Source: a virus
IMG/VR virus record: IMGVR_UViG_3300035698_009252
Coordinates: 32,001-96,000 of that record
DNA length: 64,000 nt
Direction: 5' to 3' (one strand)
The notes under the pieces are model-generated. The model was not told where the DNA came from. It saw nothing but the letters and a program-made list of their open reading frames with translations, and ran no database searches. Below, one piece after another: positions 3,121 through 63,988 of the stretch. Each line of letters starts with the position of its first letter. Within the stretch, counting starts at the first letter, position 1. The translations under genes and the position numbers were made by a program.

Positions 3121-4133
3121 TTTTTTTCCGGTCCCCCTTCGACCGGCGTGCGTGTTATCTTCTTGGCGGGTACTGTCCCGGCCAACAAGGAGTCGTCATC
3201 GACCTCATCCTCGGCGACGGCGGCCTTTACGGCTGCTTCCTCGGCATCTGTCGGGGCGGCATCTGCCGGAACGGCATCTACCGGGGCACTCACGGCTGCT
3301 GGTGCTGCGGCGGGTGCTTCCTCCTCCGGGGCCTCGTTGATTTCGAGCAGGTCCCTGTAGTCGGAATGTAAGGCGTCGATGATGCGGGACACCTCAACGT
3401 ACTTGCCGCAAATGACTTTCAGGTCATGCCGCGTGAGTTGCTTTTCCTCATCCGTGAGAGGCGTCACCTTCGCCGAAGGCGGCTTCGTGTTCTTGTCAAT
3501 CACGGCCTGCGCCGAGTACGCCGTACGCGTCCCGTTGTGGCCCTTATTGACACAGATGTCCAGCCCTTCCTCCACGTCGGAGATGTCAAAGCCCATCTGG
3601 TCAAAGATGCCTTCGATGTCGTCCCACGCTTCCATGCCAATGCTGGCAATCTTGAAGCCGAGCACTTTCTGCTCGTTGCCGTCTTCCACGGACAGGACAA
3701 ACGGGTCGTCCCGGTCGAGGATGTTCCACTTCAATTGCGTGCGGGCGTTGCAATCCCGACGCAGCTTCTCGAAGATTTTCTTCTCCTCTTCGGTGCATTC
3801 GTCCTTGAGGACCTCATGGGCAATCTTGTTGAGGCGGCAAATGGGGCATCCGCCGCGCTTGCCTTCCTCCGCCTGGATATCCCAATCCAAACAGTTGATT
3901 ACCTGGGGCATCTTGTCGCTGCCCGTAAATGCCACCGGCTGGCACAACCCCCGCTCTGACCGCTTGGGTGCCGGAGCGATGAAGTGTGTCTTGGTCTCAA
4001 GGAATTCTCCCGCCAGCCGGACGATATTCTCGCCGTCCTTCCAGGTGTGAAAAATACCCCTCAACCTGCTTCCGCCGCCGCCCTTTGGACGACTAGCCCT
4101 AAGTTTCCTGATTTTATCTACTGTCGTGCTCAT
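3117..4133 (-). CDS. single-stranded DNA-binding protein (T4 gp32-like)
   Basis: ENIVRL, CPIC, GLDICVNKGHNGTRTAYS, acidic Ala/Pro-rich tail; lies between recA and a UvsY-like gene. Confidence 0.7.
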   Translation of the reverse strand: MSTTVDKIRKLRASRPKGGGGSRLRGIFHTWKDGENIVRLAGEFLETKTHFIAPAPKRSERGLCQPVAFTGSDKMPQVINCLDWDIQAEEGKRGGCPICRLNKIAHEVLKDECTEEEKKIFEKLRRDCNARTQLKWNILDRDDPFVLSVEDGNEQKVLGFKIASIGMEAWDDIEGIFDQMGFDISDVEEGLDICVNKGHNGTRTAYSAQAVIDKNTKPPSAKVTPLTDEEKQLTRHDLKVICGKYVEVSRIIDALHSDYRDLLEINEAPEEEAPAAAPAAVSAPVDAVPADAAPTDAEEAAVKAAVAEDEVDDDSLLAGTVPAKKITRTPVEGGPEKN

Positions 4134-4211
4134 TCCTACTGCCTCCTTGGCCTTTATTGCCTTTTCGCCTTAACAGCGCCTACGCTGCCTCACAACTACC
4201 TACTATACTCC

Positions 4212-4856
4212 TCATCCAACCTGCCGTGCCCGATTTTTTCGGATGACCTGCCGAACTCTATCCATCCGGGATGATGATAACTCTCCCGGCGTACTCCTGC
4301 CTCCTCCTTTCTCCTTGTCGTCACCCATGATGCTTCCGCTTCCACTCCGCCGTTCATCGCTATCGATGGAGACGTACTCCCTCAACGAGAATGACTTCTG
4401 CTTCCACGCCTCGCACCACACATCCAAAGTGTCATACTCTTCCCGTGCCTTGTCTTCTCTGGCTTCCCACTTCTCAATCTCGGGCTCATTGTCCACGATA
4501 AATCGGGCTTTTACGTCTTCAACTTTGATGTTTGATTTCGCGGTTGTGCCCGACTCAACTGCTGCCTTGGCCAGCGCGTATTGCTTTTTCTCCCACCGGT
4601 CCTTGGCTCTATGGATATTGTCAAAACGCCTCTTTGCTGCTTTCTTGAGGGTGAGGAAGTATGCCATTGCTGCGGGCTGCATGGCTACGTGCTGGTCAAG
4701 CGAGCCCTTCGTTATGTCAAGAAGGTCCCGATGTGCCATTTCCAACTTGATACCGGAAAGTTCTACATCCCCCAACCCGTCACATGTCGCCGCGATATTC
4801 TTAAGTACTGTCATTCTCTGCCTCCTTGCCTTCTGTTGCCCATTTTGCCGATTCAC
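4212..4856 (-). CDS. UvsY-like recombination mediator
   Basis: Helical protein with KVEDVKARFI...WKQKSFSLRE pattern; next to SSB and recA. Confidence 0.55.
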   Translation of the reverse strand: MNRQNGQQKARRQRMTVLKNIAATCDGLGDVELSGIKLEMAHRDLLDITKGSLDQHVAMQPAAMAYFLTLKKAAKRRFDNIHRAKDRWEKKQYALAKAAVESGTTAKSNIKVEDVKARFIVDNEPEIEKWEAREDKAREEYDTLDVWCEAWKQKSFSLREYVSIDSDERRSGSGSIMGDDKEKGGGRSTPGELSSSRMDRVRQVIRKNRARQVG

Positions 4857-5526
4857 GCTCGAATGTTTCTATACGCCTTCTGAACTCACCCAATATTATA
4901 CGCTTGGAGCCGTACCCGGTGAGCAAGTTTTTTACCTCTTCGCGTTTTTTTTCGTTCCCGGCCTCTTTTGCCGTCCTCAAAAGGACACGTCCGCGACTAA
5001 TCAGAGCCATCCCCTCTTTGCGATTCAGCTCTTCGCGGTGCCGTTTCTTCATTTTGTCCCGGTTTGCAAACCTGAACTTTTCTATTACAAAATTGCTGCA
5101 CGCTTGCTTGATGTTCGGCGGACAGAACTTGGGATTTTCAATGTAAAAGTCCTCAAACGCCCACTCCAGGAACTCGTCAATGGTGAACCCATCAACCTCA
5201 AGACCCGCGACTGTCTGGTTTATCAACCGGCTATCGACAGGCGTAATGGAATGAACGTACTCGTAATCCGTAAACTGTAAATACCGGGACTTAAAGATGA
5301 CGATGAACCGTCGACGGTCCTTATCCGCCTTTTTCTTTGGAGAAATTTTGTGGGTCTCCTCAAAGACTTGCCGGTCACAAGCATCCGTCAGAAGCTCTAC
5401 GTAATGATAGATTTCCGGCACCTTGTCTATTCCCATCTGCCGAGCCAATATACAGACAGTTGTCTCGAACCCGCTAACGGGGCTCTCTGGTACCGGATTC
5501 CTCGTCTTGACATCTTTTTTGTTCAT
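4801..5526 (-). CDS. hypothetical protein
   Basis: 241-aa ORF overlapping both neighbours in the operon. Confidence 0.7.
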   Translation of the reverse strand: MNKKDVKTRNPVPESPVSGFETTVCILARQMGIDKVPEIYHYVELLTDACDRQVFEETHKISPKKKADKDRRRFIVIFKSRYLQFTDYEYVHSITPVDSRLINQTVAGLEVDGFTIDEFLEWAFEDFYIENPKFCPPNIKQACSNFVIEKFRFANRDKMKKRHREELNRKEGMALISRGRVLLRTAKEAGNEKKREEVKNLLTGYGSKRIILGEFRRRIETFERESAKWATEGKEAENDST

Positions 5527-59159: not shown

Positions 59160-60965
59160 CTACGCATTTACGGGCGTCTGTGCCGCCCAACCCTTACGAA
59201 TCTGCTCCACAGTGGGCAGAGCAACCTCGTCCTTATCTTCTGTCAGGCCCTCGGTTTGCGCAAGCATTCCGAACACCTTCTCGTTGAACCCGGCAAGCAG
59301 GTTCACGTGGGTGCCCTCGTCCACAATCGTGTCACCGTACCCATTCAGGTTGATGCAGTGCAGCCAAGTCTCCTTGGCCCCCTTACCCGATGCCACGTAC
59401 TTTGCCCAGGTGTCACACACAGCCTTCTCGCTGTTCGGGCTCTCCGAACGGTAGCCACGCGCACCCGTCATGCTGGTGTCATCCCACGCCTGGAGGTCGG
59501 ACAGGAGGATAACCCGGTCAGGAGTCAGCCCCTTCTCGATGAGCCACAGCGGAATCTTGAAGGCGTTGGTGTTGTGACCGTTCACGCCGTCATCCCCAAT
59601 CTTGCGGGCCACATCGAGCACTGTATCAGTCTTCGTCCACATAACCTCGCGGATATCCGTTGCGAAAGCGCACACGTAGGAACGCTCACACCCCTTGGCC
59701 ACGATACCGGTTAGCACGTTTGCCACGTCGGCCACCGTCACCTCGGACTTGTCCGACAGCCTGTTGTTCGACATGGACCTCGAAGCGTCCACGAAGATTG
59801 CCGTGGTACCCGGCAGGGAAACCCCCTCCGCTGCGTAGTTTACGGCCAGCTCGACAGCGGCTTCCAGCTCACCCCGGTCGGCCTGGTCCACACCATCAAC
59901 CTGGAGGGCCTTCGATGCGGACAGGAACCGGAACGGGAGCTGCTTGGACCGCTGCACGGCCTGCTTGCTGGAGATATACGCGGACACCTTAGCGATATGC
60001 TCTTGCGAGACCTTCGCCTGAAGGATGTTCCGCAGGTTCCGCAGCATGGCCATGTAGCCGAGCAGCTTCTCGTCAACGAGGAACTCCCAAACACCCTTCT
60101 TGTCGTCCCCGAACTGGGAAAGCAGAACCTCCCAGTTCACCTTGGACTTGCGAGCAAGTTCCTTGGTGATGTTATCGAAAGCCGTCCGCTTGTTCATGGC
60201 CGCACGTGCCGCCACAATCGGGGCGTCCTTCTCATCCGGGATTGCGCCTGTGATGAAGTAATTCGCGATGGGCTTCGCCACCGGCCAGTCGGCCTTGCGC
60301 TTCACCCACCCAAACACGTCCTTCCACGTCGGGAAGTCCGGGCTGTCATACTTCACCAACCCACGCTCTCCAAAGCCCGAGATGGCGTCCCCCAGGCCGA
60401 AGTTCAGGCCATTGGCCAGAGACTTCATGCCGAAGAAGAACCGGTGAACGAGCAGACACGTCTTAACCTCGTCCGGCCTCTTGACAATGTGCGGGGCGTA
60501 CCGACGCACAAGCGACTTGGTCGCATCGAGCCTGGACGCCACAACAAGGAGCACCTGCGGCGTGAGCCGGATGTACATCTCATTGCGGAGCCAGTTGGCG
60601 ATAGAGAGAAGGTCCTCCGGGTTGTCCCCGGTCCCCACATCGATAGCCGTTGCCACGACCTCGCGAGCCACGTCGTTGAGTTCCTCGCAGGAAGCAAAGC
60701 CATTCAGCTTGCCATCCACGATTTCGAGACGCCGAGCGAGTTGCTCGAACTTGCCGCCCTGCACCCTCTTCGGGACAATGGCGTCACCGTTATAGAACTT
60801 CGGCTCGGCGAAAAACGCCCCACCGGTCATGGTGACCAGCTTGAGTGCCGGGTCCTTAATCTCGAATGCGACGCCGCCTGCGCGGTTTACGGTTGCATTC
60901 GGCTGCTTGCTCGGCTTACGAGCGTTCGCGGACTTGGTCCGCGCCATCTTCTGAAGAGTACTCAT
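59160..60965 (-). CDS. TROVE-domain Ro60/Rsr-like RNA-binding protein with C-terminal vWA domain
   Basis: VNRAGGVAF, RPDE, YMAMLRNLRNI, SKQLPFRFLSA, MIDAS-like VDASRSM, ILLSDLQ; AGGAGGAGG RBS before ATG 60965. Confidence 0.92.
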   Translation of the reverse strand: MSTLQKMARTKSANARKPSKQPNATVNRAGGVAFEIKDPALKLVTMTGGAFFAEPKFYNGDAIVPKRVQGGKFEQLARRLEIVDGKLNGFASCEELNDVAREVVATAIDVGTGDNPEDLLSIANWLRNEMYIRLTPQVLLVVASRLDATKSLVRRYAPHIVKRPDEVKTCLLVHRFFFGMKSLANGLNFGLGDAISGFGERGLVKYDSPDFPTWKDVFGWVKRKADWPVAKPIANYFITGAIPDEKDAPIVAARAAMNKRTAFDNITKELARKSKVNWEVLLSQFGDDKKGVWEFLVDEKLLGYMAMLRNLRNILQAKVSQEHIAKVSAYISSKQAVQRSKQLPFRFLSASKALQVDGVDQADRGELEAAVELAVNYAAEGVSLPGTTAIFVDASRSMSNNRLSDKSEVTVADVANVLTGIVAKGCERSYVCAFATDIREVMWTKTDTVLDVARKIGDDGVNGHNTNAFKIPLWLIEKGLTPDRVILLSDLQAWDDTSMTGARGYRSESPNSEKAVCDTWAKYVASGKGAKETWLHCINLNGYGDTIVDEGTHVNLLAGFNEKVFGMLAQTEGLTEDKDEVALPTVEQIRKGWAAQTPVNA

Positions 60966-61031
60966 AGCGTACCTCCTCCTTCTTTGAAGCGTGCCCAACT
61001 GTAGGGCACCAATTTACATTTCCTGACAAAC

Positions 61032-61157: not shown

Positions 61158-61437
61158 AAGCCGATACCAATGGGCACAAAGAGTTGCCGAGGGATATACC
61201 ATGATGGCCACATGGGCCTTTAGGAGTCCCTCTATACGGCTCCGTTTTAGGGGAGACGGCTACGATTGACCCCGTAGCCGAGGCTGCACATAATACCCAG
61301 TGCGGGGTCTCCGTTCCCCAGGACTTGGTAGTCCCCGGTTGGGATATTCGGATGGCTTCAGCGTCCGAACCTACGGACTCCACCAACCAGTGTTACTTTT
61401 CAGTAATGAAGTAACTCTTCATTGAAGCGTATCGCTT
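61158..61437 (-). ncRNA. putative Y-RNA-like RNA with a large structured internal domain
   Basis: Ends pair (AAGCGATAC/GTATCGGCTT; GAAGAGTT/AACTCTTT); many internal stems; just upstream of tRNA-Met and the Ro60 gene. Confidence 0.55.
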
Positions 61438-61495: not shown

Positions 61496-61789
61496 CTATA
61501 CACCCGGACTCTCGTCCGGCGCAACAGAATTTTCATTTTTTTCATCTTCGTCTGGAATCCCTAATGTATTCCGCAGATATTCCTCGATTTCGTTAACGGT
61601 TGTCAACCGGCCAACATCTCCATCGGGTACAGGCTTTCCAAATTCTTCCTCGAATATCACCAACAATTCCACACAGTCCAGCTCATCGGCACCAAGGCTT
61701 GTTACGAGATGTGCATCATCTTCAATACCTTCAACCGGAATTCCCAGTTGCTCGGCCACGATAGACTTGATTCTGTCGCGAATGCTCAT
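61496..61789 (-). CDS. acyl carrier protein homologue lacking the phosphopantetheine Ser
   Basis: IKSIVAEQLG...LGADELDCVEL...EEEFG...TTVNEI; GGAGG RBS. Confidence 0.85.
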   Translation of the reverse strand: MSIRDRIKSIVAEQLGIPVEGIEDDAHLVTSLGADELDCVELLVIFEEEFGKPVPDGDVGRLTTVNEIEEYLRNTLGIPDEDEKNENSVAPDESPGV

Positions 61790-62035
61790 ACGACCTCCGT
61801 CATTCGGGTGAAGACACAATCCCTTACGGCCCCTTGTGTCTGAAAGTCCCCAAAAGGGGATGGGAAATCCAACCATGAGTTTAAGGGCTGCCTGTTCAGC
61901 ACTTACCGGGACTCTACCAACCCTTCCCGCCGATTCTCTCTACAGACTTTTTCAAACGTTGCGCGTACCTTCATCAGAGAATGTACCGTCATACTTGTCA
62001 TGTTCAGCGTAATCGGCCCGCTGACGGTTGAAAAA

Positions 62036-62211
62036 TGGTGGAGCGTACAGGAATTGAACCTGCGTCGGTTCCAGCCCTCCCGCCAACTACAGTCAAACCT
62101 GCACCGAGGAAAAAAATAAACCTCTGATTGGTACAGGACTCACTGCTTGGTACGAGACTTCGGAATCCCAAGTGACTTTCGTCACCGGCCTTTCCTCTCA
62201 GCCAACGCCCC
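62036..62211 (-). ncRNA. tRNA-like RNA with Ala acceptor identity and a >100-nt insert in place of the anticodon arm
   Basis: GGGGCGT/ACGCTCC-A-CCA acceptor (G3-U70), D-arm TGGCTGAGAGGAAAGGC, T-arm GCAGG-TTCAATT-CCTGT. Confidence 0.75.
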
Positions 62212-62285
62212 TTTCTCAGACTCTTGGCCAGCCTTTCGGCTGTTACCAGTTGACACCGCGTGGAGGTGGTCTGACATCGTCAACC

Positions 62286-62677
62286 TGGACGTGGGGAGAA
62301 TCGAACTCCCGTCCTGGACAGGCTCACCGTAAACCTCTACATGCTTATCCAGCTACTTTCTTTTGCCGCTGGCGGGCCGCACAACAGTCCTTCCCAGAGC
62401 ACCCCGTAATAAACGGTTCTGTTGTAGTACTCATTGGATGACATAGCCCGGCCACCCGCCGGGGTTCTACCTCTGTCGTTGCCGGACATCCCTTAGAGGT
62501 GTAGGGGAGCCGACACCGGGGCTGTTAAGCCGCCAGAGCGCGAGCGCCCTGGACTCCGGGGAATTGAAGAACGTTGCCGTTTACTTCAGTGTTGGAAGGC
62601 TTTTTAGGAGGCCAACCTTACCAACCTCCGCATGCAGTTAACGACTTGCATCTGCCAGTCGAAACCTTGTCACGCCC
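62286..62677 (-). ncRNA. ssrA: tmRNA
   Basis: 5' GGGCGTGACAAGGTTTCGAC; 3' GGACGGGAGTTCGATTCTCCCCACGTCCA; G3-U70; tag ORF 62525-62578 GNVLQFPGVQGARALAA*. Confidence 0.93.
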
Positions 62678-62780
62678 ATATTTTCAAAGAACGACCGTAG
62701 CATTCACCGTCTACCGCTACGAGTCAACATCAAATTATACTCTATCCATTGCTCCAGGGAGCATCAATTCTGAAAAAATT

Positions 62781-63230
62781 ACTAGCAGGCCGGGTTTTCG
62801 CCGACACACTTACCTACCCCACCCTCCACGTAGAGCCATAACTTCAACGGGATAGGGTCATAGGCTTAAAGCTCAGTCCTAATCGTTTGCCCCACCTCCA
62901 ACCGGGAGGCTACGGGTTCTCTATTCCACCCAAGGAAGGCCATTTACATCTGCAAGACAGGCTTGCTCCTCTCTCGCGTCCGGGCTCTCACCGGCACCCC
63001 TGGACTTTGCAACCTACTTCTTTCGGTTCGGCGACCCGTTCGGATTCTAACCTACTAAGGGATTTTTGCGCACGGGGACTATTGGTGCGCGGGGTGTGTT
63101 ACGGCTCCAGCAACATCCAAGGTGTTCCGGTACCGGGTAGTCCGCAAGAAGGGGACAAGACCACATTCTCGCGCTTGCCTGGTGTGTCCGGGCTTGGATT
63201 CGCCTTCACCAGCGCCACACCGCTGCCAGT
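62781..63230 (-). ncRNA. putative ~450-nt structured ncRNA
   Basis: Termini pair ACTGGCAG/CTGCTAGT; no minus-strand ORF; boxA-like element just upstream. Confidence 0.5.
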
Positions 63231-63247
63231 AAAATATCAATGAACAA

Positions 63248-63409
63248 ATCGAGCGACAGGGTTTTCACCTGCACGACGGGTATTTCATCTTTGCTTCAAG
63301 ACTGCGTTTCTTGATTTGGCTTTCGCTCGCCTCAAGGCATTCAGTCAACACCCCGTCTATTTCACCGCATCGCTGCTGGCAGTTTAGCGTCTAATTCCGC
63401 CACGCTCAA
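63248..63409 (-). ncRNA. tRNA-like RNA (Leu-type D arm) with an expanded central domain
   Basis: TTGAGCG/CGCTCGA acceptor; TGGCGGAATTAGACGC D arm; GCAGG-TGAAAAC-CCTGT T-like arm; GACGGG/CCCGTC closes a long arm. Confidence 0.6.
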
Positions 63410-63419
63410 AAACCAATGT

Positions 63420-63988
63420 TGCCTGCCCCGCCCTCACGTCCTCTTACTCTCGGACAGAGGCTTCAGCTTCGCCACGCACCGAGGTCCGGTAATCCGTGAC
63501 AGTAACCCGTCAGACAACAAATCAAAATCAAAGGGCAGGCTTGTTCGCCACAGTCCCAGAGCGGGCCGTTTAACTCCCGCTTTTCTTCCGGCATTGTTCC
63601 TTCTTCTGCAAGCAGAAGTTCACCGGGCCAATTGCAGACTAGCTGCTGGCCGATGCCGAAGCTGAGGCTGTACCTGCCATGAGGCACCGCCGAAGACGTG
63701 GCTGGTTTACGCATCCCAGCCGTAGCCCTGTTTTGCCTCCGCAAATGCGGAGATGGCTTCCCGGATTGTCTCCGGCATGGGGACGACGGTTTCCCGTCAA
63801 TCCTCCACCACCCGGATTTTTGATAAGGTTCCGGGGAACCGCATCGGAAAGGCCGCAACAGCACCCGAAGGCTGCCGTACGACGGTTCCCAACGAAAACG
63901 CCTTTGGGCCAGTCGCACCAGAGATTTGTGCCACACTGTTTTTTTTCTTGGCTCCCGGCGATAGTTCTTACCAACCGGCCCAAAGGTA
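63420..63988 (-). ncRNA. hairpin-dense region, probable ncRNA(s)
   Basis: Successive stems CCTTTGGGCC/GGCCCAAAGG, GGGAACCG/CGGTTCCC, GCCTGCCC/GGGCAGGC; ORFs here lack recognisable features. Confidence 0.4.

Follow-up and report, generated by a model that had tools for sequence, protein, structure and literature searches.

An array of structured RNAs around a phage tmRNA gene

We analysed a 64,000-nt window of a virus genome (IMG/VR record IMGVR_UViG_3300035698_009252, bases 32001-96000). The record is 139.6 kb long and is estimated to be only 43% complete, which indicates a huge phage. On its minus strand the window carries an array of RNAs and genes, in which a transfer-messenger RNA (tmRNA) gene is followed by a predicted ribozyme of the hepatitis delta virus (HDV) type and then by a 176-nt tRNA-shaped RNA without an anticodon, here called the element (Table 1). 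We take the element to be a genuine tRNA-derived RNA gene. The public sequencing runs that contain the stretch are salt-lake metagenomes and hold it as DNA contigs only, while two RNA runs share 4% of words with it; gaps in the coverage of the stretch in some runs carry no meaning.

Table 1 Features of the array and parts of the 176-nt element, in window coordinates. All listed features of the array lie on the minus strand; nt, positions within the element; CM, covariance model.
Feature	Position	Strand	Remarks
tRNA-Leu-like RNA, 161 nt	63249-63409	-	array member, most upstream
Candidate RNA stretch, ~449 nt	62781-63229	-	non-coding
Start/leader motif GTTCTTTGA	62684-62692	-	7 nt upstream of tmRNA
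Phage tmRNA	62286-62677	-	Rfam RF00023, 105.9 bits
Predicted HDV-like (theta-type) ribozyme, 70 nt	62216-62285	-	RF02682, 37.8 bits (E 3e-5), below the gathering score of 44
tRNA-shaped, anticodon-less RNA (element), 176 nt	62036-62211	-	fold, frame scan, CM alignment
Element: acceptor 5' strand GGGGCGU, nt 1-7	62205-62211	-	7/7 pairs with nt 166-172, probability 0.81-1.00
Element: D arm GGCU-GAGAGGAAA-GGCC, nt 9-25	62187-62203	-	A14, G15, G17G18, A21; probability ~0.7
Element: anticodon-stem equivalent GGUGAC-GAAA-GUCAC, nt 26-41	62171-62186	-	GAAA tetraloop, no anticodon; probability ~1.0
Element: irregular rod, ~103 nt, nt 43-145	62067-62169	-	variable-arm position; 5-nt AAUCA bulge
Element: U-rich apical loop UUUAUUUUUUU, 11 nt, nt 92-102	62110-62120	-	on GAGG/CCUC stem, probability 0.98
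Element: T arm GCAGG-UUCAAUU-CCUGU, nt 149-165	62047-62063	-	canonical; probability 0.56
Element: acceptor 3' strand ACGCUCC, A73 and encoded CCA, nt 166-176	62036-62046	-	A73 and CCA at 62036-62039
Five-U run directly 3' of CCA	62031-62035	-	possible transcript end; relatives' tmRNA genes end likewise
Structured stretch, ~230 nt	61800-62030	-	between element and ACP-like gene
ACP-like gene	61496-61789	-	PP-binding, 46 bits
Y-like RNA	61158-61437	-	upstream of tRNA-Met
tRNA-Met(CAU)	between Y-like RNA and Ro60 gene	-	
TROVE/Ro60 gene	59160-60998	-	1.04 kb downstream of element, same strand

The acceptor stem with G3-U70, A73 and encoded CCA, the D arm and the T arm, all named in an initial annotation of this DNA, were read on the minus strand. 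All seven acceptor pairs form, the third being G3:U70. The full set of elbow nucleotides is present (U8, A14, G15, GG, A21, C48-equivalent, G53, U54, U55, C56, A58 and C61), and the C that would serve as partner in the Levitt pair stands directly 5' of the T arm. In partition function calculations the acceptor, the GAAA hairpin and the rod core paired with probabilities near 1. The minimum free energy of the element was -71 kcal/mol (z = -3.4), a stability that no sequence among 200 shuffles reached.

The rod consists of about 40 irregular base pairs with the U-rich loop at its tip, and it is closed by about nt 44-51/139-145. Within it, the helix CCUGUACC/GGUGCAGG surrounds the GAGG-loop-CCUC hairpin, as annotated initially; the loop counts 11 nt and not 12 as given there. 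Another annotated helix, TTGG...CCAA (nt 41-44/62-65), can be drawn, but the ensemble favours the pairing of nt 62-65 with nt 126-129 (CCAA(G)/UUGG). The GAAA hairpin was confirmed. The helix CGGU/ACCG, proposed to close the whole insert, overlaps this hairpin by two bases and had a pair probability of 0.00.

A covariance model was built from the element sequence alone. It aligned ordinary phage tRNAs end to end, among them the tRNA-Gln of relative L040 (34 bits) and the tRNA-Ser of T4 (24 bits), with real tRNAs scoring 17-34 bits. In the alignments the GAAA hairpin takes the place of the anticodon arm, and ~102 nt of the rod fall into the variable loop. Judged from this placement, the element is a tRNA frame altered at two points: it has an anticodon loop cut down to a tetraloop and a variable region expanded into the rod. 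The anticodon arm is thus not replaced by a large domain, as had been annotated; its stem survives as a GAAA-capped hairpin, and the large domain stands at the variable arm. The D loop of the element resembles those of phage tRNA-Gln and tRNA-Cys. The long arm suggested a class II (Ser/Tyr/Leu) origin, but the D loop fits tRNA-Gln/Cys equally well, so class II is only one candidate.

Taken alone, the acceptor and T-arm frame is at chance level (2 found and 2.1 expected in 128 kb). Once an encoded CCA (NCCA) is required as well, the expectation drops to 0.01 per shuffled window, with an occurrence in 1 of 100 shuffles. The element shares with canonical tRNAs the 7-bp acceptor, a T arm with a UUCRANY loop and the D/T elbow nucleotides; it departs from them in having a GAAA tetraloop for the 7-nt anticodon loop and a length of 176 nt against ~70-95 nt. 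Neither ARAGORN in its default run nor Rfam up to E = 10 called it, and the Rfam tRNA model RF00005 gave no match, so the lack of a clean class foreseen in the initial annotation was borne out. Its placing of the RNA outside both normal tRNAs and tmRNAs also held. The tmRNA model RF00023 did not match the element at E up to 10, no tag-like frame or resume codon was found in its three-frame translation, and pseudoknot-forming segments were not noticed. The tRNA-Leu-shaped scaffold of the T5 RNA1 type, with the D arm GGAAUU(GGU)AGAC and an ACAGG/GCAGG-CCUGU T stem, agrees with the element in the T stem but not in the D arm, which is not of the Leu type.

The acceptor end carries the complete alanine identity set (G3:U70, A73, G2:C71 and G4:C69). 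A73, G2:C71 and G4:C69 are minor determinants in E. coli tRNA-Ala. The major determinant for alanyl-tRNA synthetase (AlaRS) is G3:U70, on which alone the alanylation of tmRNA rests, and the enzyme reads the acceptor stem and not the anticodon (PMC3985003).

The putative tmRNA-ribozyme junction and the distribution of the element

The space between the tmRNA and the element, initially given only as a distance of 75 nt, is 74 nt long and holds the predicted HDV-like ribozyme plus GAAA, so that the element starts 4 nt after the ribozyme ends. HDV-like ribozymes are marked by a nested double pseudoknot (P1-P1.1-P2-P3-P4), a C in the junction GGCYAAG and cleavage at their own 5' end. The sequence downstream of the tmRNA can be drawn with the helices P1 (1-7/32-38), P2 (12-17/65-70), P3 (19-21/29-31) and P4 (44-48/53-57), with C59 in GGCCAAG as the candidate catalytic nucleotide. 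A homologue with the same tmRNA-ribozyme junction was found in relative L029 (L029:95-164, 36.1 bits). P1 covaries between the two, A6-U33 being replaced by G-C in L029. Other contigs of run X4 showed A6G with U33C, C7U with G32A, and C34U, and pairing was kept in all.

The predicted cut would fall between 62286 and 62285, right after the discriminator of the tmRNA. This fits the tmRNA gene, which ends at the discriminator A and encodes no CCA (its tag is GNVLQFPGVQGARALAA*), and it also fits a gene on the contig for an enzyme of the CCA-adding type: a 507-aa open reading frame (ORF) outside the window (G000:C1:120740-121168, minus strand) belongs to the PolyA_pol/CCA-adding nucleotidyltransferase family (62.5 bits). 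The tmRNA gene of L029 likewise lacks the CCA, whereas relatives without the ribozyme encode it.

The motif GTTCTTTGA occurs four times in the window against 0.67 expected copies. In relatives it precedes tmRNA genes by 8-20 nt and coincides with the starts of Y-like RNAs. No copy precedes the element, and a simple scan found neither a promoter nor a terminator for it; the five-U run was not called either. Because the motif stands before the tmRNA and the Y-like RNA but not before the element, we infer a single transcript that would comprise the start motif, the CCA-less tmRNA, the ribozyme, GAAA, the 176-nt RNA and the U-run. The ribozyme would cleave itself off the 3' end of the tmRNA and would then form the 5' leader of the 176-nt RNA, to be removed by RNase P. 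The 3' CCA of the 176-nt RNA would come encoded.

Theta/HDV-like ribozymes sit 3' of phage tRNAs (PMC10879173). The present locus agrees with these in that a minimal HDV-like ribozyme abuts a CCA-less tRNA-type gene and that the phage has a CCA-adding-type enzyme. It differs in the gene upstream, which is a tmRNA here; tmRNA goes unmentioned in that paper (PMC10879173). The comparison concerns the 5' neighbour of the element. With the ribozyme-tmRNA junction, the theta ribozyme idea would reach beyond tRNAs to tmRNA.

Searches guided by the Ro60 gene returned 6 viral and 26 metagenomic relatives. A single one, L002, whose Ro60 is 63% identical, has a homologue of the element. Its 5' 22 nt are identical at 19 positions, a score reached by none of 300 shuffles, and its hairpin at 4157-4179 keeps the stem pairing of the GAAA hairpin through three double changes. 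The acceptor has 7/7 pairs, with G3:U70 kept and the pair 5:68 changed from C-G to U-A. Exactly at the position of the rod this copy is interrupted by a 178-aa ORF of the HNH/endonuclease VII type (PHROG, E 1.7e-17). The part after the ORF is a degenerate T hairpin followed by ACACUCC-A-UCA. No significant match to L002 was found for the middle of the element. The L002 copy is related to the element but may be dead. Covariation with a homologue, called for initially, was seen in the hairpin and acceptor stems of L002, where G3:U70 is retained. Conservation is weak.

Scans of IMG/VR with exact and degenerate patterns of the 3' end, the 5' end and the rod returned the L002 contig or nothing. Matches to the 5' pattern in species-representative genomes (L035-L037) lacked a tRNA-like 3' part and were taken as chance. 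Among GenBank phages, BLAST with the stretch from tmRNA to element found nothing similar, and a model search across the whole contigs of the relatives gave no further copy. In other relatives the tmRNA, with its CCA, is directly followed by a conserved ~125-nt RNA motif. Since L029 has no element and relatives have another RNA behind the tmRNA, the element is a cassette that the modular RNA array may have or lack. It is well formed and real but sparsely conserved.

Possible roles of the element

Having no anticodon, the element reads no codon; decoding is excluded, and the element would act as a stable mimic rather than as an adaptor. We favour, with a probability of about 0.55, a non-decoding, tRNA-shaped carrier or mimic that is co-transcribed with the tmRNA, matured by the ribozyme and RNase P, and presents the rod. 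As a stable, nuclease-resistant carrier it would show the rod to a partner, protein or RNA, from the module of Ro60, tmRNA and Y-like RNA. No copies of the rod were found elsewhere. The initial annotation had suggested that the U-rich loop might read A-rich RNA or bind a protein; a search of the 139.6-kb contig for sequences complementary to the element gave only 10-13-mers at chance level. The suggestion that the RNA is a decoy for anticodon nucleases is made unlikely by the missing anticodon loop.

Charging by the host AlaRS is plausible, at slightly less than even odds, because the alanine identity set is complete and the enzyme needs no anticodon; the host AlaRS would then charge the element as it charges the upstream tmRNA. 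Genes of the SmpB, AlaRS, RtcB, reverse transcriptase and FemAB families were not found on the contig, which carries little weight as it represents ~43% of the genome. A bolder version, which we consider quite unlikely, makes the element a second alanine-charged, anticodon-less RNA in the tmRNA transcript, with a hairpin in the place of SmpB, that engages AlaRS, EF-Tu or the ribosome or donates alanine outside translation; this would be a new viral way to tap or tune the host aminoacyl-tRNA pool. In support of the favoured carrier, neighbouring RNAs are also tRNA-shaped and anticodon-less, namely the one at 63249-63409 with its counterpart L023:702-820, and L009:287-372. If the element is charged, phages would be seen to deploy non-decoding aminoacyl-RNAs beside tmRNA. 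If it is only a scaffold, it illustrates a use of the tRNA shape by phages to mature and stabilise other RNA domains.

Several observations speak against a functional carrier. There is one homologue only, and it is split by the HNH-type gene, has a degenerate T arm and a UCA end, and is possibly dead. L029, the closest relative covering the site (Ro60 77% identical, same tmRNA-ribozyme pair), has no element. No further copy turned up in IMG/VR, the species-representative genomes, GenBank phages or the 26 metagenome loci fetched with Ro60. The runs with the stretch hold DNA contigs without variants within the element. Alanine identity is not common to these RNAs, as the sibling in L009 pairs C3 with G70.

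Some of these points also fit a decaying relic: either a phage tRNA or the tRNA-like end of a tmRNA, after duplication, would have lost its anticodon loop, gained an insertion and now stand without function at the end of the tmRNA operon. The sporadic spread with the absence from L029, the homing-type endonuclease gene in the L002 copy, a modular array with a membership that varies from relative to relative, and the restriction to DNA contigs are all in line with it. The element itself shows no decayed part, however. Its acceptor (7/7), canonical T loop, elbow and CCA are intact, its rod is long, stable and nearly continuous, and a frame with CCA would hardly arise by chance. It is also identical in the contigs of several salt-lake runs, although this lends weak support, as they perhaps represent one population. 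We regard a relic as unlikely, though less so than the alternatives below.

A role as a Ro60 partner, in which the element would be a Y-RNA-like adaptor and a permutation of YrlA that binds the phage Ro60 through its GAAA hairpin or its rod, is distinctly unlikely. The setting speaks for it: the TROVE/Ro60 gene lies downstream on the same strand, within the 4 kb used as a placement criterion for YrlA (PMC4201824). YrlA also mimics the T and D arms of tRNAs, and in M. smegmatis it is an RNase P substrate to which CCA is added (PMC4201824). The element contains the motif GNCGAAN0-1G at nt 29-36. This motif is, however, internal, not kept in L002 and expected about 0.08 times by chance in 176 nt (estimate). 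In YrlA the ends form the Ro60-binding stem and the acceptor is a closed hairpin (PMC4201824), whereas the 5' and 3' ends of the element pair as an acceptor stem. Rfam models of Y_RNA and YrlA did not match at E up to 10. Most relatives with Ro60 are without the element, and the constant neighbour of Ro60 is another conserved hairpin RNA (CUUCAG...GRGUUACUUC). That the motif is weak and not conserved, and that the element accompanies Ro60 only patchily, speaks against an obligate partnership with Ro60.

The initial annotation had also considered a mini ribosome-rescue RNA. In such a tag-less rescue or tmRNA-modulating role, an RNA similar to the tRNA-like domain (TLD) of tmRNA and charged with alanine would enter stalled ribosomes or titrate SmpB or EF-Tu. 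G3:U70, A73, CCA and the location directly behind the tmRNA suit this idea. The long arm projects like the tmRNA connector helix, which leaves the TLD in the class II variable-arm direction, as does the rod (PMC3985003). Mycobacteriophage DS6A has a TLD-only tmRNA gene, proposed to titrate SmpB or EF-Tu; a molecule like it inhibits tmRNA, possibly through titration of SmpB (PMC4131195). With the TLD and the DS6A RNA the element shares G3:U70, A73, the canonical T arm, the lack of an anticodon and phage encoding (PMC4131195, PMC3985003). The TLD, however, has a deformed D arm and an empty anticodon-stem site that is filled by SmpB (PMC3985003, PMC4131195), whereas the element has a regular D stem-loop and a 5-6-bp hairpin there, which argues against an SmpB-dependent, tmRNA-like role. 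It also lacks a resume codon and a tag frame like that of the phage's own ...ALAA tag, as well as pseudoknots and an Rfam tmRNA match. A full tmRNA in the same transcript makes an inhibitor of tmRNA odd. We therefore hold this role to be very unlikely.

An intron-bearing tRNA, from which the insert would be spliced to leave an ordinary tRNA, can practically be dismissed. ARAGORN with introns allowed returned a tRNA-Ser(UGA) with an 83-nt intron, unexplained tRNA 'introns' exist in Lak megaphages (PMC6784885), and the tmRNA gene of relative L004 has a ~420-nt insert in its T loop; but the ARAGORN model, dropped for its poor anticodon stem (2/5 Watson-Crick pairs), places the intron at 31/32 and not 37/38, leaves the variable arm unpaired and competes with a GAAA hairpin and rod at probability ~1. 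The insert of 83-105 nt is too short for a group I intron, whose core it lacks, and no intron or ribozyme family of Rfam matched within it. The splicing that had been named as refuting the initial annotation is thus not supported.

The favoured carrier has its nearest counterparts among known phage RNAs. T4 rnaC/rnaD (AF158101 70908-71171) and T5 RNA1/RNA2 (AY543070 30501-30644 and 32959-33083) are annotated as stable tRNA-like RNAs with function unassigned; they are encoded among phage tRNA genes and are non-decoding (PMC3014915). Folded here, they showed the same acceptor-like closing stem and canonical T arm around a non-anticodon interior, and T5 RNA2 has the same GCAGG/CCUGU T stem as the element. 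There is no sequence homology, and the element's model matches only true tRNAs in these loci. None of the folded sequences has the alanine identity set or an encoded CCA; the element, in contrast, lies in a tmRNA operon behind a ribozyme and carries its large domain at the variable arm. The element thus belongs to the known phage tRNA-like RNAs, from which the alanine set, the ribozyme/tmRNA setting and the variable-arm rod set it apart. Stable tRNA-like RNAs without assigned function have accompanied phage tRNA clusters from the T4/T5 era onward. The element is a clean and large example that offers handles: the full alanine identity set, a path through ribozyme, RNase P and encoded CCA, and a Ro60/tmRNA neighbourhood that suggests partners.

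Other RNAs and genes of the array and its relatives

The tRNA-Leu-like RNA at the upstream end of the array has a D arm of the tRNA-Leu type (GGCGGAAUUAGACGC), a GCAGG/CCUGU T stem with the loop UGAAAAC. It lacks a normal anticodon loop and carries a domain of ~85 nt where the variable arm would be; in the L023 homologue the acceptor stem covaries. Local similarity between this RNA and the element was not significant, being reached by 52 of 500 shuffles; the two have the 14-mer GGGGTGTTGACTGA in common, which is within chance for such sizes (estimate). The adjacent ~449-nt stretch is closed by CUGGCAG/CUGCUAG beside a T-like hairpin (GUCGG-CGAAAAC-CCGGC), and a U-run follows. It contains AAAGUCCAGGGGUGCC, which we take to recall RNase P RNA, though Rfam finds nothing there at E up to 10. 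An Rfam search over 62690-63430 likewise gave nothing.

The 86-nt RNA of L009 lies between tRNA-Met and Ro60 and is not called by ARAGORN. Acceptor (with ACCA), D arm and canonical T arm are all present, and where the anticodon loop would be there is a hairpin capped by UUCG. The Ro60 of L009 is the closest found (78% identical).

The conserved ~125-nt RNA that directly follows the tmRNA in several relatives reads GAUGAYGGGGAAU...GGGAAACAAAGGCAA...CCUCCGU.GCCCCRUCAUC. It was located at L016:2416-2539, L031:2508-2632, L002:4788-4915 and, in part, L029:250-290, and is absent from the window. The structured stretch that separates the element from the ACP-like gene has UCAGCGGGCCGAUUACGCUGA...AGAGAGAAUCGG in common with L031:2640-2760 and is probably another conserved RNA or a leader. 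In the ACP-like gene the phosphopantetheine serine is replaced (LGADELD). The serine is also missing from the counterparts in L002 (5011-5253), L016, L029, L031, L010 and L011, where the gene is a constant member of the array.

Y-like RNAs, in the window and upstream of tRNA-Met in relatives, share the conserved hairpin CUUCAG-N-GRGUUACUUC and gave no match to the Rfam models of Y RNA and YrlA. They are preceded by TTGCAA-17-TATAGT promoters and by GTTCTTTGA. The split tmRNA gene of L004 spans 4049-4872, and the group I intron model did not match its insert at E below 0.1. Type-P5 twister ribozymes were detected in the RNA arrays of related phages at L006:2182-2270 (48.6 bits) and L004:3460-3536 (38 bits), with a gathering score of 37.6; one of them lies ~100 nt after tRNA-Met. 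Large GC-rich structured non-coding regions with their own GTTCTTTGA start were seen between tRNA-Met and Ro60 in several relatives (L019:800-1200, L021:270-700 and L010:4000-4330).

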